Sequence record: MK373786.1
From: Escherichia phage vB_EcoM_R5505
Length of the DNA: 64,000 bases
Reading direction: 5' to 3' (one strand)
The position numbers and the translations under genes were made by a program. The notes beneath the pieces were generated by a model. It did no database searches, was not told the origin of the DNA, and worked only from the letters and a program-made list of their open reading frames with translations. Positions 24,345 through 55,300 of the stretch are shown in pieces (position 1 is the first letter of the stretch; each line of letters opens with the position of its first letter).

Positions 24345-24635
24345 TTATTTACGGAATGAAATGAAAGCAGAAACTGAAGCAACTAAACTGTCTTCAATAT
24401 AAACTTCAATTTTTACCGGAGCTTCTGACTCGAATTTACCTGTTACTACACCTTGGAAAATACTTTCAGTTTGTTCTGGCTTTGAAAAATTTTCAGAAGG
24501 AAAAATTCCGAACTTTTTATCTGTTCCAAAAATTTTGATAAATTCATCATAAACTGCTTCATTAAAAGCATTATCAGCAGGAATAACGCCTTCAACTACA
24601 AGTTCTTGACCTAAAAAGCGCAAAGAAGATTTCAT
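24345..24635 (-). CDS. Hypothetical protein (position of T4 alt.-3)
   Basis: 96-aa ORF directly downstream of an early-promoter/stem-loop element. Confidence 0.6.
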   Translation of the reverse strand: MKSSLRFLGQELVVEGVIPADNAFNEAVYDEFIKIFGTDKKFGIFPSENFSKPEQTESIFQGVVTGKFESEAPVKIEVYIEDSLVASVSAFISFRK

Positions 24636-24643
24636 TTTGTGTT

Positions 24644-24696
24644 CCTCATGTTATGTCAGTAAGACTACTATAACACAACACGAGGGACTTGTAAAC
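24644..24696 (-). promoter_or_regulatory. Early promoter embedded in a stem-loop (53-bp element, copy 1)
   Basis: Minus strand GTTTACA-(17)-TGTTATAGT; 9-bp inverted repeat cctcatgtt/aacacgagg; 51/53 identical to 39971-40023. Confidence 0.6.
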
Positions 24697-26753
24697 TACA
24701 TCTTGAACTTTTTAGACATTCCGTTGATGTTAACCAAAGAAGCCAAGATTTGAGAAACTTCGTTTTCCTCTTCTTTTGATTCTTCTACAAGGAATTGATT
24801 AAATCCAGCCATTGGACGAACTTCACCAGTTTCCATTAAATGGTCGCCATCATATACTGATTCTTCTAATTGTTCAGAAGGAGGAACGATTGTACCTTCG
24901 ATTAGATACTTGTTATAAGCAGTTTCTTTCATAAAGTACGTACTTACTTTATTAATCTTCAGTAAAATTCCACGCGGTAGAATAACTTCAGCTTCTGATG
25001 GAAATCCTGATAAATGACCTGGAACGATAACTTTGATTCGCTCAGCTCCTTTAATTACCATACCCACGCTAGTTTCAGCATCTTCAATGGCATATGTAGA
25101 ATGACTACCCATATGCATTAAATCTTCTGCATCAACGGAACCTTCTCCTTCGCCAGAAAATACTGCGCCGGAATCATCTAGAGCCATATAGTTTTTACCA
25201 TGCTCACCGAAGATATTTGGTTTAAGTGATGTCGATACGAAGTTCTTGAAATAGAACATTTTGTTTTCAATGTTATGACGCAAAGTTTTAAAGGTAACTT
25301 CTTGTCCACGGTAAAGTGTAGTTCCTGGAGGAAGAACTGATCCTTTGGCAAAGGCAGAATCCAACGTCTCGATGTGCTTAATAGCTCGTTCCATATATTC
25401 TTCACGGGTAGAATCTGGTTTACCCAAAAGGAACGAGTTCATTTCAACATATGAATCTGCACAATAATCTTCAATTACATCAGATTCAGCTTGGGTTAAT
25501 CCTTTTGGAGTTACTTCGGTGCTTGCGTATTCATATGCCTGGGCAGCAGATTCATTAATCAATTTATAAATGCCATTCATGACAAATTGAATAATAGCTG
25601 TCTTTTCATCTGGCGTAGCTTTAGAACCTTTAACTAAATCATTAATAATTTTCTTAATAACATCAAAGCTATTAGAAATATTAATGTCAGCAAGATCGCT
25701 TAAAATTTTATCAGTTTTATAATCAAAGAATTCTTTATTCTTTAAATATTCTTGAGAACCTTGATATGTTATATCGCTCTGCAACTTGATAGATGGATCA
25801 CGTAAACGTGCATGGGCTAATGCAATATGATTTCGGAAGTTTTCTAGTTCATAATCGTTAGATTTAAAACGAGAAGCACTTCTCATACCACCGATAGCTC
25901 CTTTGCTAAAGTTTGAACCAATCTGGATAACCCCGGAGTTCATCGGACCTTCTGCTTTATATACCGGAACTTTAGATTCAAACTCTTGATATTTCTTGGC
26001 AGCGAAGCTATCACCCTGAAGTGAAGCATCAACAGTAGAATATTGAGCTTGTGCTGCTAATCGACGACTAATTTTAGTTTTCTGAATAACAGCTTGATCA
26101 GTGCGCTTATCATTTTCTAAAGCAATAGAAGCAGCAACAGCGACAGCTTTAGGAACAGCATTACCTGTTTTAACGTCTACATAAACATCACCAACCTTTG
26201 ATTCAACTTTTGTGAATAACTCAGTTGAAATAGGAGGTACACCTGGAATGTCTTCTAAATTGGCATTTTTACGGTAAACCATAATATATGCATACTTTTT
26301 ATCATAGTCCCAGATTTCCTTTAAAAGAACATATCGACCTGCTCCTTTAGTACGTACTAAACGGTCAGCAATAACTTGCATTTGACGAGCTGCGCCATTT
26401 GTTTTACTCTTTAGTACACGGAATAAGCACGCGTCAATTTTGTACTGCTTCATTGTTTGAAGAGCAGTATCAAAAACAGCATTAATGACGCCAATTGGAT
26501 TTCCACCCAAGTTTCTAAGCTTAACCAGCGATAATTTCTCGTTGACACCTATCATTACGATATGCATCATTTTATCGCCTGGTTTAACGTTTTTATTTGT
26601 ATCACCACCAGAGGTGTATGTACAAAATCTAAATCCAGGAAGAACGCTTTCTTCACCGGCTTGAATAGCAAAAATTTGAGGTATTTTATGCTTAGGATTT
26701 AAGTTAACAACCGGCGCCGAAGCGCCGTCAAATAATTCTGTAATAAGTTCCAT
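24696..26753 (-). CDS. Alt-family ADP-ribosyltransferase paralog (downstream copy)
   Basis: 685 aa; N-terminus MELITELFD... and C-terminal ART motifs (YRGQ, FVSTSL, EAEVILPRG) shared with the adjacent paralog; middle region divergent. Confidence 0.85.
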   Translation of the reverse strand: MELITELFDGASAPVVNLNPKHKIPQIFAIQAGEESVLPGFRFCTYTSGGDTNKNVKPGDKMMHIVMIGVNEKLSLVKLRNLGGNPIGVINAVFDTALQTMKQYKIDACLFRVLKSKTNGAARQMQVIADRLVRTKGAGRYVLLKEIWDYDKKYAYIMVYRKNANLEDIPGVPPISTELFTKVESKVGDVYVDVKTGNAVPKAVAVAASIALENDKRTDQAVIQKTKISRRLAAQAQYSTVDASLQGDSFAAKKYQEFESKVPVYKAEGPMNSGVIQIGSNFSKGAIGGMRSASRFKSNDYELENFRNHIALAHARLRDPSIKLQSDITYQGSQEYLKNKEFFDYKTDKILSDLADINISNSFDVIKKIINDLVKGSKATPDEKTAIIQFVMNGIYKLINESAAQAYEYASTEVTPKGLTQAESDVIEDYCADSYVEMNSFLLGKPDSTREEYMERAIKHIETLDSAFAKGSVLPPGTTLYRGQEVTFKTLRHNIENKMFYFKNFVSTSLKPNIFGEHGKNYMALDDSGAVFSGEGEGSVDAEDLMHMGSHSTYAIEDAETSVGMVIKGAERIKVIVPGHLSGFPSEAEVILPRGILLKINKVSTYFMKETAYNKYLIEGTIVPPSEQLEESVYDGDHLMETGEVRPMAGFNQFLVEESKEEENEVSQILASLVNINGMSKKFKM

Positions 26754-26756
26754 GAT

Positions 26757-28847
26757 TTATCCTTGAACGAACTTGTAAGGCATGTTTGTAATATCTATGC
26801 AAGACGCAATAATTCCAAGAGATGATTCTACTTTCTGTTTAACATTTGATGAAACAAATGATGCAAAGTCAACTCTATCTTCTATATCACCTGTCATTGC
26901 AACTACTTCGCCGGTTTCCATTAAACGGTCACCGTCATAAATTACCGATTCGGTGAGTTCTTCTGTGGTCATAACTTCAGCTTGAATGAGTTTTGTATTA
27001 TTAGACGTGGTTCCGTCATTATTAGAAGCATCAGTTATTTTATTAACTTTAACCATCAATCCGCGCGGTAGAATAACTTCAGCTTCTGTTGCTATTCCTA
27101 GACTTCCTGGATATACAACATTAACTTTATGTGCGCCGTCAATTGCCCATCCTATTTGAACTTTAACGTATTCAGGATTTTCTTTATACGCTCTTATTTC
27201 GTTTGGATTAATAGTTATTCCTTCTTCATTTTTATCAACTGTCAATTCATTACGAGCTTCTGGTTCTAAAAGACCAATACCAGCATGTGTAATTCCAAAA
27301 CGCCCAAAAATGATAGGAGTTAAAGAAGTAGATACAAAATTTCTGAAATAGAACACTTTATTTTTAACTAGCGCTTCGTATATAGGAGCAGTCATACTTT
27401 GAGCACGATAAACTGTAATGCCTTCCGGTATGCGGTCACCATTTTCAAAAGCTGAATCTAAATTATTTATAGCAGATTCAATTTCTTTTTCACTCATTAC
27501 ATCATATCGTTCTGGATTGTAACGACCTAAAAGAAGATTATTGATGTCAGTATATCCTGAACCACAATACTCTCTAATGCCGCGCTTTTGTGATGGAGTA
27601 TATTTAGAACCATCACGAGCAATAGTAATATCAATCATTGGACCTGCACCAATTCCGGAAAAGCTATAAATCATTCGTTTGAGGAATTTAGTTTTTGCTG
27701 CGTTCCAGGAATTTTTAGTTATTTCTTCCCAGACTTCATCTGGTTGCCCTTTACGAGTTTTATTATGTTTATCAAGCCAATTATCTTTATATTCTTCAAA
27801 GAATTTATTAATAGCTGCTGCGTATTTCTCTAAACATTTTATTGAAGTAGTTGGTTCATTTTTTATCGCGTTAAAAATTACATCTTTAATTTTTTCGGAA
27901 ACTTCATCAACCTCACTTTTTGAAAAGAATTTATAGTCATAGTGAAGTTCATTCGCAGTTCCTTCGGCAATAATTTTTGCTGCCTTAGTTTTAGAAGCTA
28001 ATGAATTAATTCCAAGCTTCATTTCTTCTGCTTCGGGAATTAAAGGAGCGGTAGCGGGTTTATTGAAATTAGCTGCGGTAGATTCATACTTCTGAAATAA
28101 TTCACTTTCAAATCTAGAAGATTCCAATGACTGACTTTGTGCAATTGCTCTACGGGAAATTTTAACTTTAACGATTACAGCTTGATCAGAACGTTTATCA
28201 TTTTCTTGCGCAATAGATGCTGCAATTGCCTCATTTTTAGTTACTTGAGCTCCAGTATCTTTATTGATATAAACATCACCGACCTTCGATTCAACTTTAG
28301 TAAAGAGCTCGGTACTAATTTCCGGAACCCCTGGAATGTCTTCTAGTGATACATTTTTGCGATGTATAAGAATATATGCATACTTTTTATCGTAATCCCA
28401 GAGTTCCTTAAGAAGGACGTATCTGCCACCTGAACGACTACGGATAAGTCTATCAGCAATAACCTGAATTTGTCGAGCTTGACCAGCGGTTTTAGACTTA
28501 AGAATACGAAGCATACAGGCATCAATTTTATACTGACGCATTGTTTGCATTGCAACAGTAAAAACTGAATTGATATAATTAATTGGGCTTGAACCAAGAC
28601 CTTTCAATTTAGCAATTGAACCTTTAGCAGTTAATGTAAAAGGAACAATATGCATCATTTTATCGCCCATCTTTAAATCGCGATTAGTATCACCTCCAGA
28701 TGTATAGGTACATAAACGAAAGCCTGGTTGTTCAATTGCATCATCAACATGAACTGAAAAAATTTGTGGTATTTTCTTCTTTGGGTTTAAGTTTGTAATC
28801 GGAAGAGTAGTATCTTCGTCAAATAATTCTGTAATGAGTTCCATCAT
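26757..28847 (-). CDS. alt: Alt-family ADP-ribosyltransferase (upstream copy, probably the alt orthologue)
   Basis: 696 aa (695 from the second Met); R-S-ExE ART motifs YRAQ, FVSTSL, EAEVILPRG; minus-strand TATAAATA at 28868-28875 upstream; which paralog is canonical alt is not certain. Confidence 0.85.
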   Translation of the reverse strand: MMELITELFDEDTTLPITNLNPKKKIPQIFSVHVDDAIEQPGFRLCTYTSGGDTNRDLKMGDKMMHIVPFTLTAKGSIAKLKGLGSSPINYINSVFTVAMQTMRQYKIDACMLRILKSKTAGQARQIQVIADRLIRSRSGGRYVLLKELWDYDKKYAYILIHRKNVSLEDIPGVPEISTELFTKVESKVGDVYINKDTGAQVTKNEAIAASIAQENDKRSDQAVIVKVKISRRAIAQSQSLESSRFESELFQKYESTAANFNKPATAPLIPEAEEMKLGINSLASKTKAAKIIAEGTANELHYDYKFFSKSEVDEVSEKIKDVIFNAIKNEPTTSIKCLEKYAAAINKFFEEYKDNWLDKHNKTRKGQPDEVWEEITKNSWNAAKTKFLKRMIYSFSGIGAGPMIDITIARDGSKYTPSQKRGIREYCGSGYTDINNLLLGRYNPERYDVMSEKEIESAINNLDSAFENGDRIPEGITVYRAQSMTAPIYEALVKNKVFYFRNFVSTSLTPIIFGRFGITHAGIGLLEPEARNELTVDKNEEGITINPNEIRAYKENPEYVKVQIGWAIDGAHKVNVVYPGSLGIATEAEVILPRGLMVKVNKITDASNNDGTTSNNTKLIQAEVMTTEELTESVIYDGDRLMETGEVVAMTGDIEDRVDFASFVSSNVKQKVESSLGIIASCIDITNMPYKFVQG

Positions 28848-32824: not shown

Positions 32825-33202
32825 TTAAATATCAAATTCGTTAAGAACTACATCAAAGATTGCTTCCAAGTGCTCAGGTTTAGCTTTGTTACTCAGAATA
32901 TGACGAATCCAAGTTTTAACTAAGAGTTTACGATTAGCACCATTCCAGCAAGGATGAGTCCCTAAATCGCGTTGGCGGAAATCATCATCCAGAGCGATTT
33001 TGAAGTTGGAACCTTTCATCGTGATTGAAACCGTGATACCGTTTTCAAATCGCATATAAACGTAGTTAGGAGTCATATACTGTTCAATTTCGCATACTGA
33101 TCCGTTTTGATGTTTCCAGAGGCAAATAGTATCAATAGAACCTGCAATACCATTAGAAACATATTTACGTTCAAAGTTGATGTAGTTCATTTTATTCTCC
33201 AA
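32825..33202 (-). CDS. Hypothetical protein
   Basis: 125-aa ORF with its own stem-loop-embedded early promoter (33216-33254). Confidence 0.6.
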   Translation of the reverse strand: MENKMNYINFERKYVSNGIAGSIDTICLWKHQNGSVCEIEQYMTPNYVYMRFENGITVSITMKGSNFKIALDDDFRQRDLGTHPCWNGANRKLLVKTWIRHILSNKAKPEHLEAIFDVVLNEFDI

Positions 33203-33215
33203 GATGTTTAATTGC

Positions 33216-33254
33216 GGTACAGGTATATAATATCATATCCTGTACCAAAGTAAA
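33216..33254 (-). promoter_or_regulatory. Early promoter with -10 inside a stem-loop
   Basis: 8-bp inverted repeat ggtacagg/cctgtacc around the minus-strand TATTAT; GTTTAC at 33249-33254. Confidence 0.5.
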
Positions 33255-33257
33255 CAA

Positions 33258-33590
33258 TTATTTTACTACTTTCCAATGCTGCATGTCAAGTTTACCAACT
33301 TTTTTCATCTTCTCAATTAAGCGTTCTGCACGTTGGCGAGCTGTAACATAATGCCATTCGCCTAATTCATTTTGTTCAATTTTTCCAACGATTACTGTAT
33401 TCAATTCATAAATCCAACCAGTAAAGAAATTATGAACTTGAATTGTAAAGGTGAAATCTGTTCCCATACCTTCTGTTGTTTCTACTTCAATAATATCACC
33501 TTCAACTGCCATTAAGAACCACATAGTTTCATTATATTTACCATTGAAGCATTTAGTTTTAACTGCAGCGTTCAGATTAATCGTTTTCAT
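33258..33590 (-). CDS. Hypothetical protein
   Basis: 110-aa ORF with its own stem-loop-embedded early promoter (33605-33647). Confidence 0.6.
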   Translation of the reverse strand: MKTINLNAAVKTKCFNGKYNETMWFLMAVEGDIIEVETTEGMGTDFTFTIQVHNFFTGWIYELNTVIVGKIEQNELGEWHYVTARQRAERLIEKMKKVGKLDMQHWKVVK

Positions 33591-33604
33591 TTTATTCTCC
33601 TTTG

Positions 33605-33647
33605 TTTGTGTAAGATAATACTATCACAAAGGAACTATACTGTAAAC
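33605..33647 (-). promoter_or_regulatory. Early promoter with -10 inside a stem-loop
   Basis: 6-bp inverted repeat tttgtg/cacaaa around the minus-strand TAGTAT; GTTTAC at 33642-33647. Confidence 0.5.
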
Positions 33648-33677
33648 AACTTTATGCAATCTTTGGAAAATAAAAAA

Positions 33678-33695
33678 GGACTCCCGAAGGAGTCC
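33678..33695 (-). terminator. Hairpin downstream of the basic small ORF
   Basis: ggactcc-cgaa-ggagtcc; the minus-strand RNA would carry a U-run after it. Confidence 0.6.
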
Positions 33696-33700
33696 TCAAC

Positions 33701-36080: not shown

Positions 36081-36415
36081 TTCATAATCACCAGATAAGC
36101 AGATTTAGCAGTTTCAACACGATAAATTTCGTGACGAAGTTTAGTTATACTTTTAATAACAGAACTAATTATATTCTGCCCATCTTTAAAGCGGTTTTTC
36201 TTATCAATAAAAACTGCGCCAGTCATCTTTTTGTGAAGCTCAACCGGATACTTCGTCACAATAATAGCATCATACACAGAAGGATGAATACTATTCACCA
36301 GAGTATCATTCATTAAAGTTATTCTAATGAACTGTGCTGTTTCAGAGTCAAGCGCTCTATGATCGCCAGTATCATTTTCAAGACAATTATCAATTATATC
36401 AGTTAAATTCATCAT
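36077..36415 (-). CDS. Hypothetical protein (cd.1 position)
   Basis: 112-aa ORF, start overlaps upstream stop. Confidence 0.6.
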   Translation of the reverse strand: MMNLTDIIDNCLENDTGDHRALDSETAQFIRITLMNDTLVNSIHPSVYDAIIVTKYPVELHKKMTGAVFIDKKNRFKDGQNIISSVIKSITKLRHEIYRVETAKSAYLVIMK

Positions 36416-36648
36416 AGTACGCCATACGCCCTTTGTGCTTCAACTAATCCATCAAAATCCAATTTGAGATGTGTTATTTGGTCACCATCACCTGGATTCA
36501 CAATTACTAATACTGAACGAGGAGTTTCGGTAATAACACGAACCGATGTTTCAGGAAATCGTTCAGAAACCTTATTTACCAATTCCTGCGCAAATAGTTT
36601 AACTTTTTCTTGGAATTCTTTAACAGTAATTGGTTTTTCACTTAGCAT
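36412..36648 (-). CDS. Hypothetical protein (cd.2 position)
   Basis: 78-aa ORF downstream of early promoter/stem-loop 36670-36708. Confidence 0.6.
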   Translation of the reverse strand: MLSEKPITVKEFQEKVKLFAQELVNKVSERFPETSVRVITETPRSVLVIVNPGDGDQITHLKLDFDGLVEAQRAYGVL

Positions 36649-36669
36649 TTTGTTTTCCTCATTTGTTTT

Positions 36670-36708
36670 GGTAGAGCTATAATATCACAACTCTACCATA
36701 AAGTAAAC
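36670..36708 (-). promoter_or_regulatory. Early promoter with -10 inside a stem-loop
   Basis: 7-bp inverted repeat ggtagag/ctctacc around the minus-strand TATTAT; GTTTAC at 36703-36708. Confidence 0.5.
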
Positions 36709-37379: not shown

Positions 37380-38591
<1,212 letters not shown>

Positions 38592-38595
<4 letters not shown>

Positions 38596-39468: not shown

Positions 39469-39965
39469 AAAGTTTTAATAACCTCTATAATATCGTCTTG
39501 AGAAAGACCGTTAATTAAAATATGATGTTCCGCCGGAGATTTAGAAATTTTAAAGCATGCCGCAACATCTTCTGCCATATCCGATGCGCTACGATTTGGA
39601 TTACTAATTCCAAGACGATGTTTTCCCGTTAAAGGATTAACGATAATATAGCATTTACAGCTATTGATATGAACATTAGGTTGAGTCTGATTAATGAACA
39701 CTTCACAATCATACTTAGCGAGTTGATTTTCTAAAAAGACTTTCATCTCTTCAACCGCATCAGGAAGCATATCACGGGCTTGCTCAAGACGACGATTTCG
39801 ATATTCTTTAATGGTCGTTTTCCGCTTGACTTGCTTAGCTAAATCTTTCTTAAGATCGGTGATATATCCAACTCGACGATTTCCTTTAAATACAGAAATC
39901 CCATCTGTAGTATCACCGTATGCTTCAACGACCATTTCAGTAGTAATAAGCTGCAAATCCATCAT
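39459..39965 (-). CDS. alc: Probable Alc (host transcription inhibitor)
   Basis: 168 aa (T4 Alc about 167 aa) in the expected position between the pseT cluster and rnlA; called on size and synteny only. Confidence 0.65.
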   Translation of the reverse strand: MMDLQLITTEMVVEAYGDTTDGISVFKGNRRVGYITDLKKDLAKQVKRKTTIKEYRNRRLEQARDMLPDAVEEMKVFLENQLAKYDCEVFINQTQPNVHINSCKCYIIVNPLTGKHRLGISNPNRSASDMAEDVAACFKISKSPAEHHILINGLSQDDIIEVIKTLCN

Positions 39966-39970
39966 AAAGT

Positions 39971-40023
39971 CCTCATGTTATGTCAGTAAGATTACTATAA
40001 CACAACATGAGGGACTTGTAAAC
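39971..40023 (-). promoter_or_regulatory. Early promoter embedded in a stem-loop (53-bp element, copy 2)
   Basis: Same element with perfect 9-bp inverted repeat cctcatgtt/aacatgagg; upstream of the alc-position ORF. Confidence 0.6.
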
Positions 40024-46571: not shown

Positions 46572-46931
46572 TTAATACGGTTTAGCATCAAATTTTCTCT
46601 CAATTTCAGGCGTGAAATATAATTCTTTACCGCGTTTGGAAAAGCGACCAATAATATGATAATTATTCTCATCAAACGTGATATTACCAATATCCATAGC
46701 TTTCAACCAAATATCGATATTTCTATCCAGCTTTATGTCAAAATTCCAATACGGAGAACTATTACCGAAAATACTGCAAGCGGATTCAGTGAAACAACTG
46801 CTATAAATCTTGTCTTTAGGAACTACTAATTGATAGACACCTTTAATAAACTGAGGACCCTGCCACTTTGGCTGTTTCGCGTCTTTTTCTAATAGAATAG
46901 GGTAATAATTAAAATTCATATTTTCCGCCAC
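46572..46931 (-). CDS. Hypothetical protein inserted between frd and td
   Basis: 119-aa ORF with no recognisable motif, in an interval where T4 frd and td are remembered as overlapping. Confidence 0.6.
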   Translation of the reverse strand: MAENMNFNYYPILLEKDAKQPKWQGPQFIKGVYQLVVPKDKIYSSCFTESACSIFGNSSPYWNFDIKLDRNIDIWLKAMDIGNITFDENNYHIIGRFSKRGKELYFTPEIERKFDAKPY

Positions 46932-46939
46932 GCGTTATT

Positions 46940-47760
<821 letters not shown>

Positions 47761-47769
47761 TATATTTCC

Positions 47770-48012
47770 TCAAATAGACTTTTTCACAATTTTCCAATCG
47801 GCTTTAAACTGCTCGACGTCAGAATGGTAAATCCAGAATCCTGCGCTTTCTCCGTCTTCATAAAGAGGACATCCATCACATTCATCTTCCCACCCCATAT
47901 CACGTAAAAGGTGTTCAGCTTTTTCAACAAGCTCAGAATCTTTACCGATGATATTAAAATACCATTTACCTCTAACTTCTGAATCTTTAATGCTCTGACG
48001 TTGTAATCTCAT
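47770..48012 (-). CDS. Hypothetical protein
   Basis: ORF 47770..48105; ATG at 48012 (MRLQRQSIKD...) follows a strong GAGGAG RBS; the upstream part of the ORF covers a promoter element. Confidence 0.55.
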   Translation of the reverse strand: MRLQRQSIKDSEVRGKWYFNIIGKDSELVEKAEHLLRDMGWEDECDGCPLYEDGESAGFWIYHSDVEQFKADWKIVKKSI

Positions 48013-48035
48013 TTTATTCTCCTCATGTAGTTGAT

Positions 48036-48071
48036 AGGGTAATAGTATCACACTACTACCCTGTTGTAAAC
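48036..48071 (-). promoter_or_regulatory. Early promoter with -10 inside a stem-loop
   Basis: 6-bp inverted repeat agggta/taccct around the minus-strand TACTAT; GTTTAC at 48066-48071. Confidence 0.5.
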
Positions 48072-48079
48072 AATTATTT

Positions 48080-48334
48080 TTAAATTTTATCGAGCCACTT
48101 ACCAAGCTTAATCATTTCTTTAGTAGCCTTTTCCATACTTCTGAACTTAACCAATAGAGGATAGGTATCGACACCCATAACTAAACTGGTTACAAGACTG
48201 TGTTCACCCACAAGCCATAACGAATACGTTTGAATATCGAGCCCGTAATTTCTGTCTTTATGGACCCGTACACCCATCACTTCAAATTTCTCACTAGCTT
48301 TTTCTACCGCATCCAGGAAATCATCTTTAGTCAT
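48080..48334 (-). CDS. Hypothetical protein
   Basis: ORF 48080..48376; ATG at 48334 (MTKDDF...) avoids overlap with the upstream ORF and follows AAGG. Confidence 0.5.
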   Translation of the reverse strand: MTKDDFLDAVEKASEKFEVMGVRVHKDRNYGLDIQTYSLWLVGEHSLVTSLVMGVDTYPLLVKFRSMEKATKEMIKLGKWLDKI

Positions 48335-48335
48335 A

Positions 48336-48701
48336 TTAGGCCTTAAAAGTTTTTCGCAAAAGTTCAATGATTTCATCTACATTGTTTTCGTCAACAATGC
48401 AGTGAATTTTTGTTACGCCATAAACCTCGTCTTTGACTTCATCTTCTTCAGAAGTCGGTTCTTTATACTCACGAAAACAATGAAATTCGTCTTCACAAAC
48501 GTTAAAGTAAAAATGCTTTCCATTTGCGCATTCAATGTGTTTTATTACTCTAAATCCATCAACAAAGAAAGCTTCTTTAACTTCAAACCATCCTCCATTT
48601 TCTTGAATAATTTTAACTATTGATGAATTAGAACGTGGGCGATAATTAATAAATGTATCAATAAGTCTTGGAACAAGTTCATACTTTTTGCCGATATACA
48701 T
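48336..48701 (-). CDS. Hypothetical protein
   Basis: 121-aa ORF; several Cys/His (C..H...C..C). Confidence 0.55.
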   Translation of the reverse strand: MYIGKKYELVPRLIDTFINYRPRSNSSIVKIIQENGGWFEVKEAFFVDGFRVIKHIECANGKHFYFNVCEDEFHCFREYKEPTSEEDEVKDEVYGVTKIHCIVDENNVDEIIELLRKTFKA

Positions 48702-48976: not shown

Positions 48977-49080
48977 ATTATTTTCCTCTTTAATCATCAG
49001 CAGTATTGCCGATAGTTGTATAGTACCACAGTATGCTTTGGTTGTAAACCGTTTTGTGAAAAAATTTTTAAAATAAAAAA

Positions 49081-49099
49081 GGGGACCTCTAGGGTCCCC
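49081..49099 (-). terminator. Hairpin terminator downstream of gene 32
   Basis: ggggacc-tctag-ggtcccc preceded on plus by an A-run (U-run on the minus RNA). Confidence 0.65.
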
Positions 49100-52395: not shown

Positions 52396-55300
52396 ATGGC
52401 CGAGATTAAAAGAAAGTTCAGAGCAGAAGATGGTCTGGACGCAGGTGGTGATAAAATAATCAACGTAGCTTTAGCTGATCGTACCGTAGGAACTGACGGT
52501 GTTAACGTTGATTACTTAATTCAAGAAAACACAGTTCAACAATATGATCCAACTCGTGGATATTTAAAAGATTTTGTAATCATTTATGATAACCGCTTTT
52601 GGGCTGCTATAAATGATATTCCAAAACCAGCAGGAGCTTTTAATAGCGGACGCTGGAGAGCATTACGTACCGATGCTAACTGGATTACAGTCTCATCTGG
52701 TTCATATCAATTAAAATCCGGTGAAGCAATTTCGGTTAACACCGCAGCTGGAAATGACATCACGTTTACTTTACCATCTTCTCCAATTGATGGCGATACT
52801 ATCGTTCTCCAAGATATTGGAGGAAAACCTGGAGTTAACCAAGTTTTAATTGTAGCTCCAGTGCAAAGTATTGTAAACTTTAGAGGTGAACAGGTACGTT
52901 CAGTACTAATGACTCATCCAAAGTCACAGCTAGTTTTAATTTTTAGTAATCGTCTGTGGCAAATGTATGTAGCTGATTATAGTAGAGAAGCTGTAGTTGT
53001 AACACCAGCGAATACTTATCAAGCGCAATCTAATGATTTTATCGTGCGTAGATTTACTTCTGCTGCACCAATTAATGTCAAACTTCCAAGATTTGCTAAT
53101 CATGGCGATATTATTAATTTCGTTGATTTAGATAAACTGAATCCACTTTATCATACAATTGTTACTACATACGATGAAACGACTTCAGTACAAGAAGTTG
53201 GAACTCATTCCATTGAAGGCCGTACATCGATTGACGGTTTCTTGATGTTCGATGATAATGAGAAATTGTGGAGATTGTTTGACGGTGACAGTAAAGCACG
53301 TTTACGCATTATAACGACTAATTCTAATATTCGTCCAAATGAAGAAGTCATGGTGTTTGGAGCGAATAACGGAACAACTCAAACAATTGAGCTTCAGCTT
53401 CCTACTGATATTTCTGTTGGTGATACTGTTAAAATTTCCATGAATTACATGAGAAAAGGACAAACAGTTAAAATCAAGGCTGCGGGCGAAGATAAAATTG
53501 CTTCTTCAGTTCAATTACTGCAATTCCCAAAACGCTCAGAATATCCGCCTGAAGCTGAGTGGGTTACAGTCCAAGAATTAGTTTTTAATGGTGAAACTAA
53601 TTATGTTCCGGTTTTACAACTTGCTTATATAGAAGATTCTGATGGAAAATACTGGGTTGTACAGCAAAACGTTCCAACTGTAGAAAGAGTTGATTCTTTA
53701 AATGATTCTACTAGAGCAAGATTAGGCGTAATTGCTTTAGCTACACAAGCTCAAGCTAACGTCGATTTAGAAAATTCTCCTCAAAAAGAATTAGCAATTA
53801 CTCCAGAAACGTTAGCTAATCGTACTGCTACAGAAACTCGTAGAGGTATTGCAAGAATAGCAACTACTGCTCAAGTGAATCAGAACACCACATTCTCTTT
53901 TGCTGATGATATTATCATCACTCCTAAAAAGCTGAATGAAAGAACTGCTACAGAAACTCGCAGAGGTGTCGCAGAAATTGCTACACAGCAGGAAACTAAT
54001 ACAGGTACTGATGATACTACAATCATTACTCCTAAAAAGCTTCAAGCTCGCCAAGGTTCTGAGTCATTATCTGGTATTGTAACTTTTGTATCTACTGCAG
54101 GTGCTACTCCAGCTTCTAGCCGTGAATTAAATGGTACGAATGTTTATAATAAAAACACTAATAATTTAGTTGTTTCACCTAAAGCTTTGGATCAGTATAA
54201 AGCTACTCCAACGCAGCAAGGTGCAGTAATTTTAGCAGTTGAAAGTGAAGTAATTGCTGGACAAAGTCAGGAAGGATGGGCAAATGCTGTTGTAACACCA
54301 GAAACGTTACATAAAAAGACATCAACTGATGACAGAATTGGTTTAATTGAAATTGCTACGCAAAGTGAAGTTAATACAGGAACTGATTATACTCGTGCAG
54401 TCACTCCTAAAACTTTAAATGACCGTAGAGCAACTGAAAGTTTAAGTGGTATAGCTGAAATTGCTACACAAGTTGAATTCGACGCAGGCGTCGACGATAC
54501 TCGTATCTCTACACCATTAAAAATTAAAACCAGATTTAATAGTACTGATCGTACTTCTGTTGTTGCTCTATCTGGATTAGTTGAATCAGGAACTCTCTGG
54601 GACCATTATACCCTTAATATTCTTGAAGCAAATGAGACACAGCGTGGTACACTTCGTGTAGCTACACAGGTTGAAGCTGCTGCAGGAACATTAGATAATG
54701 TTTTAATAACTCCTAAAAAGCTTTTAGGTACTAAATCTACCGAATCGCAAGAAGGTGTTATTAAAGTTGCAACTCAGTCTGAAACTGTGACTGGAACGTC
54801 AGCAAATACTGCTGTATCTCCAAAAAATTTAAAATGGATTGTGCAGAGTGAACCTACTTGGGCAGCTACTACTGCGATAAGAGGTTTTGTTAAAACTTCA
54901 TCTGGTTCAATTACATTCGTTGGTAATGATACAGTCGGTTCTACCCAAGATTTAGAACTGTATGAGAAAAATAGCTATGCGGTATCACCATATGAATTAA
55001 ACCGTGTATTAGCAAATTATTTGCCATTAAAAGCAAAAGCTGTAGATAGTAATTTATTGGATGGTCTAGATTCATCTCAGTTCATTCGTAGGGATATTGC
55101 ACAGACGGTTAATGGTTCACTAACCTTAACCCAACAAACGAATCTGAGTGCCCCTCTTGTATCATCTAGTACTGCTACGTTTGGTGGATCAGTTTCGGCA
55201 AATAGTACATTAACTATTTCTAATACTGGAACGGCAACTCGTCTGATTTTTGAGAAAGGACCTCAAACTGGAACTAACCCAGCACAGACGATGACTATCA

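Follow-up and report, generated by a model that had tools for sequence, protein, structure and literature searches.

We analyzed a 64,000-nucleotide (nt) stretch of Escherichia phage vB_EcoM_R5505 (record MK373786.1; hereafter, the window) and found a family of early-promoter cassettes in which an inverted repeat encloses the −10 element of a minus-strand promoter, upstream of a small open reading frame (ORF). The family includes four promoters, here called sites 1 to 4, and 53-bp twins upstream of alc (40023) and alt.-3 (24696). The inverted repeats are real and far commoner than chance. The kind of element is already known: it belongs to the published promoter-early stem-loop (PeSL) class, which flanks small accessory genes and marks gene swaps between phages. 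An earlier note, made from the sequence alone, had pointed to these elements; its observation is confirmed and its interpretation supported. Our favored reading, which we judge moderately probable, is a composite one, in which PeSL-type early-promoter cassettes carry a hairpin that would act only on read-through RNA, insulating the small ORF and its upstream neighbor.

Anatomy of the promoter cassettes

All four elements were found on the minus strand where the earlier note had placed them, and they do form a family of early promoters: they match the T4 early-promoter consensus, and site 3 is promoter Pe133295 of the T4 RefSeq record (NC_000866). By sequence similarity, sites 1 to 4 are orthologues of the T4 early promoters upstream of 30.7, 30.8, cd.2, and frd.1, respectively. 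All four sites and both twins carry GTTTAC, a spacer of 17–18 nt, and an extended −10 of the form TGnTAnnAT. Nine strict early promoters were counted on the minus strand of the window.

Site 1 (cassette 33188–33255; this and all cassettes below are on the minus strand) lies between 30.8 and 30.7, with the −35 GTTTAC at 33255–33250 and the −10 TATTAT at 33232–33227. Its arms are GGTACAGG on the 5′ side (33246–33239) and CCTGTACC on the 3′ side (33223–33216), followed by a Shine-Dalgarno sequence (SD), GGAG, at 33200–33197 and the ATG at 33190–33188. Site 2 (33588–33647), upstream of 30.8, has its −35 GTTTAC at 33647–33642, its −10 TAGTAT at 33623–33618, and its ATG at 33590–33588; the better pairing is one of 8 bp between TCCTTTGT (33633–33626) and ACAAAGGA (33605–33598), the latter overlapping the SD AAGGAG, while the 6-bp pair TTTGTG/CACAAA proposed in the earlier note (33630–33625 with 33610–33605) is an alternative. 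Site 3 (36646–36708), between cd.3 and cd.2, has a −35 GTTTAC at 36708–36703, a −10 TATTAT at 36684–36679, arms TGGTAGAG (36698–36691) and CTCTACCA (36676–36669), an SD GAGG at 36660–36657, and an ATG at 36648–36646. Site 4 (48010–48071), upstream of frd.1, has a −35 GTTTAC at 48071–48066, a −10 TACTAT at 48047–48042, arms AGGGTA (48062–48057) and TACCCT (48041–48036), an SD GAGGAG at 48024–48019, and an ATG at 48012–48010.

The twins share the architecture of the four sites. In the alc twin (39963–40023), a −35 at 40023–40018 and a −10 TATAGT at 39999–39994 are accompanied by a 5′ arm AAGTCC-C-TCATGTT (40017–40004) and a 3′ arm AACATGAGGACTT (39979–39967) that covers the SD, with the ATG at 39965–39963. 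The alt.-3 twin (24633–24696), upstream of an ORF with a DUF5498 domain, has a −35 at 24696–24691, a −10 at 24672–24667, arms CCTCGTGTT (24685–24677) and AACATGAGG (24652–24644) that include one G.U pair, and an ATG at 24635–24633.

The longest Watson-Crick stems between the spacer and the region after the −10 measure 8 bp at sites 1, 2, and 3, 6 bp at site 4, and 9 bp at the alc twin, and the palindrome axis falls at the upstream edge of the −10. The −10 thus lies inside the inverted repeat, as had been proposed, but the 14- to 15-nt loop of that proposal does not hold for RNA, in which the stems extend to 12–16 bp and close on loops of 3–4 nt; likewise, the distance from GTTTAC to the stem is 3–11 nt rather than 5–11 nt. 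The argument that the 5′ arm sits within the −35/−10 spacer, upstream of any sigma-70 start and outside the promoter’s own transcript, stands. Only RNA that began further upstream can therefore form the hairpin.

Two geometries of the stem

The elements had been described as sharing one architecture. Though the family is real, two geometries were mixed in that description, as site 2 sequesters the SD and sites 1, 3, and 4 do not. In the first geometry, which we call the tight clamp, the arms hug the −10; this form is found at sites 1, 3, and 4 in the window, site 4 being weaker than the other two, and at T4 promoters 57990 (13 bp), 65799 (14 bp), and 73939 (10 bp). In the second, the SD clamp, the spacer holds a CCTC-like 5′ arm whose partner is the GAGG or GGAG of the ribosome binding site (RBS) 20–35 nt downstream. 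The promoters of regB, ipII, alc, alt.-3, and 30.8 are examples, with site 2 (the 30.8 promoter) a weak one.

SD accessibility was then predicted by partition-function folding of the read-through RNA and of the promoter’s own RNA, taken from its putative start site. At site 2, the predicted probability that the SD is unpaired is 0.00 in read-through RNA and 0.89 in the promoter’s own RNA, and the corresponding values at alc are 0.01 and 0.70; across the twins and site 2, the read-through values are all 0.00–0.01. No such difference between the two RNAs was predicted for sites 1, 3, and 4, where the SD is unpaired with a probability of 0.52–0.76 in read-through RNA. As the partner of the spacer arm is the RBS, the role suggested by the SD-clamp sequences makes sense only in RNA.

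A third kind of hairpin, CCACA-agga-TGTGG, lies wholly within the −35/−10 spacer, its 3′ arm including the TG of the extended −10. It was seen at T4 promoters 2458, 50973, and 167086 and upstream of alt.-3 homologues in L088, L078, L072, and L077, and co-varying versions (GCACA/TGTGT, CCAC/GTGG, and CATCC/GGATG) occur in other lineages. Very strong promoter-spanning palindromes were also seen at T4 65799 (ipII) and 66498 (ipIII), of 14 bp and 8 bp, respectively, each with an 8-nt loop. Their arms, AATTGTGA and TCACAATT, appear to match the half-sites of the symmetric lac operator; the spacing differs, and the match is probably a coincidence.

Among the leaders, the end GGAGAATAAAATG is common to sites 1, 2, and 4 (33197–33188, 33600–33588, and 48022–48010). 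An early SD GGAG followed by an A-rich tract is a described target of the T4 RegB endoribonuclease (PMC3014915), and if RegB cuts there, the upstream product of cleavage would carry a tight-clamp hairpin, a few nt upstream of the target, at its 3′ end. At 33289–33260 on the minus strand, in the 3′ end of 30.8, there is a near-consensus match to sigma-70 (TTGACA-18-TAAAAT, 11/12), which precedes the promoter of site 1 by about 35 nt. A generic sigma-70 scan of the window was uninformative (71 matches against 68 expected), and no Rfam family matched anywhere in the window.

Enrichment of stems at early promoters

We compared the folding energy of each element with that of dinucleotide shuffles, using RNAfold. 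Site 1 folds at −19.5 kcal/mol (z −6.0), with none of 200 shuffles as good; site 3 folds at −17.4 kcal/mol (z −4.0), site 4 at −15.8 kcal/mol (z −2.5), and site 2 at −12.1 kcal/mol (z −1.8). The alc twin reaches −24.8 kcal/mol (z −5.9), and the alt.-3 twin has a z of −4.4. The rnh promoter (52350) was considered as a further member and rejected, as its 6-bp repeat is not significant (z −0.55). In promoter shuffles that keep complementary base composition, per-promoter P values range from 0.001 to 0.05, and from 0.001 to 0.012 for stems of 8–9 bp.

Inverted repeats are plentiful in the window as a whole: those of at least 8 bp number 72, against about 39 in shuffles, and those of 7 bp number 144, against 106. 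With so many chance repeats in the window, the relevant test is a position-specific one. This was performed on T4 (positions 1–78000 and 120001–168903), where early promoters number 31–39, by comparing 31 strict early promoters with 3411 control positions of the same geometry. Of the 31 promoters, 52% have a −10-spanning Watson-Crick stem of 6 bp or more, versus 11% of controls (binomial P 4.5e-8), and 23% have one of 8 bp or more, versus 1.0% (binomial P 2.5e-8). The earlier note had named equal frequency in shuffled sequence as the result that would count against its proposal; both the position-specific excess in T4 and the promoter shuffles show instead that the frequencies differ.

Conservation of pairing across relatives

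The stems differ in sequence among relatives in a way that keeps them paired. Within T4 and the Mosigvirus-like group, the arms of site 1 are invariant while the loop and leader diverge. At the orthologous 30.7 promoter, the tight clamp of T4 type (GGTACAGG) is replaced by GGTGAGAGTC/GACTCTCACC in Winklervirus and by GGTGTAGGAGT/ACTCTTACACC, GCTGATTGGGTG/CACTCAATCAGC, or GGGTGGT/ACCACCC in IMG/VR lineages without an assigned genus. In the Karamvirus and Gelderlandvirus genomes examined and in several unassigned IMG/VR lineages, the same promoter has an SD clamp instead (CTCCGTTGTAT/ATACAACGGAG or CTCCGAGGTT/AACCTCGGAG).

Each spacer was then paired with its cognate leader and with leaders taken from other lineages, and the duplex energies were compared by permutation. 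Mean energies for cognate and non-cognate pairs were −17.2 versus −9.8 kcal/mol for 30.7 (P 2e-4), −20.3 versus −11.3 kcal/mol for alc (P 2e-4), and −8.9 versus −7.7 kcal/mol for 30.8 (P 0.012). For alc, we aligned 12 non-T4 variants on structure-independent anchors, namely, the −35 box and the SD’s final G, leaving the T4 type out; a single column-wise structure for all alc orthologues failed, as the stem register differs between lineages. In this alignment, 91% of cells are paired versus 73% in shuffles (0/500), both sides have changed in 8 of 12 pairs, and double-change cells number 27 against 8.4 expected (0/500). Sliding the partner by 1–3 columns lowers pairing to 37–52%. Because of this covariation, together with the shuffles and slid controls, neither chance nor the promoter consensus as such accounts for the complementarity in these sequences.

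That rival explanation, by which complementarity would arise by chance in AT-rich intergenic DNA or from the consensus itself, draws on the abundance of chance repeats in the window noted above, on the partial self-complementarity of TA-rich −10 regions, and on sites 2 and 4 and the rnh promoter, none of which is compelling by itself. We regard it as very improbable and rejected it, once tested, for the family as a whole: the enrichment over matched control positions is 5- to 20-fold, non-cognate spacer/leader pairs share the consensus and yet pair far less well, the compensatory changes at alc were equaled in no shuffle, and stems of different sequence occur at the same orthologous promoter.

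An annotation in the T4 record touches on site 3. A misc_feature at 133300–133313 of NC_000866 is described as the “inverted complement” of an earlier reported sequence, correcting Pe133295. The segment corresponds to 36677–36690 of the window and 13300–13313 of L022 and is exactly the 14-nt loop between the site 3 arms; the reverse complement of this loop would include a perfect but incorrectly spaced TATAAT. In IMG/VR, we found no match to the loop-flipped form and five to the normal orientation. The annotation most likely records an old sequencing correction.

Relation of the stems to terminators

Next, we asked how the stems relate to canonical terminators. In the window, two promoters are preceded by a canonical intrinsic terminator. 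One is site 2 (33647), with its weak SD clamp, directly upstream of which, after gene 30.9, lies GAGGACTCC-TTCG-GGAGTCCTT with a T-run (33676–33697, minus strand; a T4 orthologue is present). The other is a comparison promoter at 49049 (49020–49099, minus strand), which has a canonical terminator just upstream (49099–49081) and no promoter-spanning stem. In T4, a tight clamp is found at none of the six promoters with a canonical hairpin and T-run within 70 nt upstream. We extended the count to 65 non-redundant promoter clusters from T4 and 33 IMG/VR loci, in which 33 clusters have a spanning stem (18 tight, 15 SD). Such a stem occurs in 1 of 12 clusters with an upstream canonical terminator versus 32 of 53 without (Fisher P 0.0012); the cassette families are partly paralogous, and the 65 clusters are not fully independent. 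Orthologues of one promoter alternate accordingly (L018, L020, and L051 versus L017 and L050): Tegunavirus and one Jiaodavirus lineage have a terminator and no stem, and Winklervirus and another Jiaodavirus-like lineage have a stem and no terminator. The mutual exclusion suggests that the function of the stem matters only when upstream RNA crosses the promoter.

The authors of the PeSL work proposed that such stems are terminators, and by extension the tight clamps could be true terminators or attenuators, with the nested promoter restarting transcription. In phi1, the PeSL211/210 stem-loop caused a drop in lacZ expression similar to that seen with rrnB T1 (PMC2839356). The ASO78A record annotates the hairpins of sites 1 and 3 as terminators on the basis of WebGeSTer calls, with the site 3 promoter overlapping one, and the mutual exclusion with canonical upstream terminators is also as expected of stems that terminate. 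Efficient intrinsic termination by Escherichia coli RNA polymerase, however, needs a U-run, and none follows any of the tight-clamp stems examined, the bases after the 3′ arms being, for example, gcaattaa, aaaacaaa, and atcaacta. Our own terminator scan missed the promoter-nested stems though it found those at 33697–33676 and 49099–49081. Moreover, the lacZ assay cannot separate termination from effects on RNA stability or translation, stems of the T4 type are both weaker and richer in A+T than the G/C tracts of the phi1 assay, and termination cannot account for the SD-clamp class, in which covariation tracks the SD. We consider true termination an unlikely explanation.

Module boundaries and recombination

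The earlier note had also seen the cassettes as boundaries of variable gene content and had called for module presence to be compared across related phages. In such comparisons, indel breakpoints do fall at cassettes. Homology between the window and T4 breaks at 24715, 19 nt upstream of the alt.-3 twin’s −35, and on both sides of site 4 (48010–48023 and 48092), where the window has an extra 98-amino-acid (aa) ORF. In PST and ASO78A, a 528-bp insertion carrying ORF213 starts at the site 3 SD and ends at the cd.2 ATG. The clearest case comes from two Jiaodavirus-like IMG/VR contigs, at the orthologue of the site 2/site 1 pair: L083 (8991–9913) has a 923-bp two-ORF module, including a 30.8 homologue, with one copy of an 83-bp early-promoter cassette on either side, and in L084 a single cassette copy replaces the module. 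Judged by these sequences, the difference is the footprint expected of cassette-to-cassette recombination.

The promoter at 49049, upstream of the gene 32 region, is a hybrid. Its upstream half (49011–49089) is 97.5% identical to the T4 motA promoter region (T4 163635–163715); the local T4 counterpart (146875) has a different spacer, and the leader of 49049 is of the local type. It appears to be a promoter cassette that was swapped through recombination within TACTATacaactatc.

The association between indels and cassettes is strong but not exclusive. The proposal that cassettes bound variable gene content holds for the breakpoints just described and fails for three of about seven regional indels, which fall at plain stop/start junctions; four are homing-endonuclease or intron differences.

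These breakpoints bear on a further rival, that the inverted repeats act on DNA, as a hairpin, cruciform, or protein target, either for cassette recombination (module shuffling or mini-circles) or for promoter modulation and early shut-off. Besides the breakpoints within cassettes, the placement of the palindrome axis at the upstream edge of the −10 would suit such a role, and the mechanism of early-promoter shut-off is incompletely understood (PMC3014915). A preference for G.U over A.C mismatches, as pairing in RNA would leave, was not significant either across 63 promoter clusters (15 versus 11) or among within-cluster single substitutions (13 versus 8), and a DNA-level role for the tight clamps thus keeps some probability. 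Set against this, several variants keep their pairing through G.U on the sense strand, several stems depending on such pairs; arm sequences vary by cassette, leaving no common protein site; self-complementarity adds nothing to the homology between cassettes; the spacer partner in the SD clamp is an RBS 20–35 nt away, an arrangement sensible only in RNA; terminator exclusion points to read-through RNA; and the loop-inverted site 3 was absent from IMG/VR. A palindromic operator for one protein was rejected in particular, as the arms (GGTACAGG, TCCTTTGT, TGGTAGAG, AGGGTA, and CCTCATGTT) share no half-site and differ among orthologues as well. Altogether, action on DNA appears quite improbable.

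A proposed model for read-through RNA

We return to the composite reading, in which the hairpin would act on read-through RNA. In each cassette, an AT-rich lead-in and GTTTAC are followed by a spacer of 17–18 nt and TGnTAnnAT; a short leader and an SD then precede the ATG of a small accessory ORF. The promoter’s own transcript would start about 7 nt past the −10, without the 5′ arm, and would be unstructured, while read-through RNA from an upstream promoter would hold both arms and presumably fold in vivo. Where the SD is clamped (site 2 and the alc and alt.-3 twins), read-through copies would be translationally silent, and the ORF would be translated only from its own immediate-early transcript. 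Where the clamp is tight (sites 1, 3, and 4), the SD would stay free, and the hairpin would most likely define or protect the 3′ end of the upstream message, as an attenuator or a barrier to 3′ exonucleases, in the slot where other cassettes have a canonical terminator. Because they are repeated along the genome, the cassettes could double as homology patches for the insertion, deletion, and swapping of ORFs.

Several points weigh against this reading. Sites 2 and 4 are individually weak, and about half of early promoters lack such a stem. The predicted SD of the alt.-3 twin stays paired in the promoter’s own transcript (probability unpaired 0.09), which misfits a simple on/off picture. The missing U-runs and the lack of significant G.U bias reported above belong here too, and the terminator exclusion may be due in part to the way cassette families descended and not to function. 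A search of the accessible literature for a T4 start-site or 3′-end map (dRNA-seq, Term-seq, or Cappable-seq) found none.

More broadly, promoter-nested hairpins may form a general RNA-level insulation code of T4-type phages, in which an anti-SD or clamp arm carried in the −35/−10 spacer would shield the ORF from read-through at about half of early promoters, replacing a terminator. We put this forward tentatively, with somewhat more doubt than belief. If true, roughly one-quarter of early ORFs, those of the SD-clamp class, would be translatable only from their own immediate-early transcript; the sharp early shut-off would have a translational component; and the conservation of the stems by compensatory change, rather than by sequence, would be explained.

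Comparison with known systems

Arbiol et al. (2010) defined PeSLs as promoter-early stem-loop cassettes that border ORFans in the phages phi1 and RB49; promoter activity was shown, one stem gave a terminator-like drop in lacZ, and the cassettes were tied to indels and mini-circles (PMC2839356). All testable defining features of PeSLs are present in our family: an early promoter, a stem-loop at the promoter, the SD and start of a small ORF, many copies, and indels at cassettes. In both systems, repeated intergenic cassettes combine an AT-rich region, a sigma-70-type early promoter, a stem-loop, and the start (SD and ATG) of a small ORF that is often an orphan; a common place for the stem-loop is between the −35 and −10 or across the −10 (PMC2839356); and cassettes are concentrated in variable regions, where indels or replacements between close relatives end in them. 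The hexamers differ, being T4-type in the window (GTTTAC ... TGnTAnnAT) and near-perfect TTGACA/TATAAT in phi1 and RB49, and the window stems are AT-richer and diverse in sequence, whereas those of phi1 and RB49 pair a G-tract with a C-tract. In the Arbiol paper, the stem is treated as a terminator and possible recombination target, without an SD-pairing subclass, covariation, or terminator exclusion (PMC2839356).

Comeau et al. (2014) added PST and T4 to the phages with PeSLs, giving the consensus TTTACW-N17-TAYWAT and placing the stems just upstream of the promoter (PMC4122927). These elements, along with the IP-locus elements of Repoila et al. (1994; cited in PMC2839356), come from the same genus, have the same promoter consensus as ours, and are associated with ORFs that differ between close relatives (PMC4122927). 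The accessible text has no explicit account of stems nested around the −10 like those of sites 1, 3, and 4 (PMC4122927).

The SD clamp also recalls the T4 genes e, soc, 49, and I-TevI, whose promoters are nested in RBS-sequestering hairpins (Uzan and Miller review, PMC3014915). There, a helix sequesters the SD or AUG, and the promoter is situated within the 5′ strand of this helix or adjacent to it, so that long transcripts are silent and those from the nested promoter, without the 5′ strand, are translated; in the same review, RNA structure is noted to protect GGAG sites from RegB (PMC3014915). The geometry of site 2 and the twins is exactly this, whereas sites 1, 3, and 4 do not bury the SD. 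The nested promoter of the known genes is, however, a late one (TATAAATA) and delays expression, and that of the window is early and sigma-70-type and would restrict translation to its own immediate-early transcript. The SD-clamp sites resemble the e/soc/49 hairpins in logic and differ from them in promoter class; they are not members of the described set.

With intrinsic terminators, the window stems share their position as intergenic hairpins directly after a stop codon, a slot in which they and real terminators are mutually exclusive; they differ in having no U-run and in having long loops unless weak A.U and G.U pairs are counted.

Reading raw sequence without tools thus recovered a genuine, selected regulatory architecture, though it adds little as a discovery since PeSLs were already published. 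What the present analysis adds is computational: compensatory spacer-leader pairing across several genera, near mutual exclusion with upstream terminators, and a sizeable SD-burying subclass that mirrors, at early promoters, the hairpins of e, soc, 49, and I-TevI. No description of the covariation, the terminator exclusion, or the early-promoter SD-clamp subclass was found in the literature examined. If confirmed by experiment, these findings would lead PeSL stems to be viewed as read-through-RNA insulators rather than as recombination signals or terminators.

Genomic setting

The 5-kb stretch around sites 1 and 2 is 97–99% identical to hundreds of Tequatrovirus genomes, which places the window, at the sequence level, within a Tequatrovirus (T4-like) genome; PST is closely related (~97% identity). 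We established the gene order by comparison with the annotated ASO78A, PST, and T4 records and by BLAST of the window against T4. The minus-strand early region spans 24–52 kb and runs alt, 30, 30.1 to 30.9, rIII, 31, cd, pseT, alc, rnlA, and denA, continuing through nrdB, nrdA, td, frd, 32, 59, 33, dsbA, and rnh, with gene 34 starting at 52396 on the plus strand.

Each of the four promoters precedes a small ORF of unknown function, as had been observed, and all four of these ORFs lie on the minus strand. Gene 30.7 (32825–33190) encodes 121 aa with the Pfam family Phage_T4_Gp30_7, and gene 30.8 (33258–33590) encodes 110 aa with Phage_30_8; together with site 2, 30.8 makes up a 392-bp promoter-plus-ORF unit ending at site 1. 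Gene cd.2 (36412–36648) encodes 78 aa with DUF7320, and gene frd.1 (47770–48012) encodes 80 aa with DUF5417.

Several genes distinguish the window from T4. Absent from the window are the td and nrdB introns, mobE, nrdB.1, and segG. ORFs without a T4 counterpart in place comprise a second alt-like gene (26757–28847; 696 aa) and small ORFs of 103 aa (38284–38595), 119 aa (46572–46931), 80 aa (47518–47760), and 98 aa (48080–48376), the last of which has no Pfam match.

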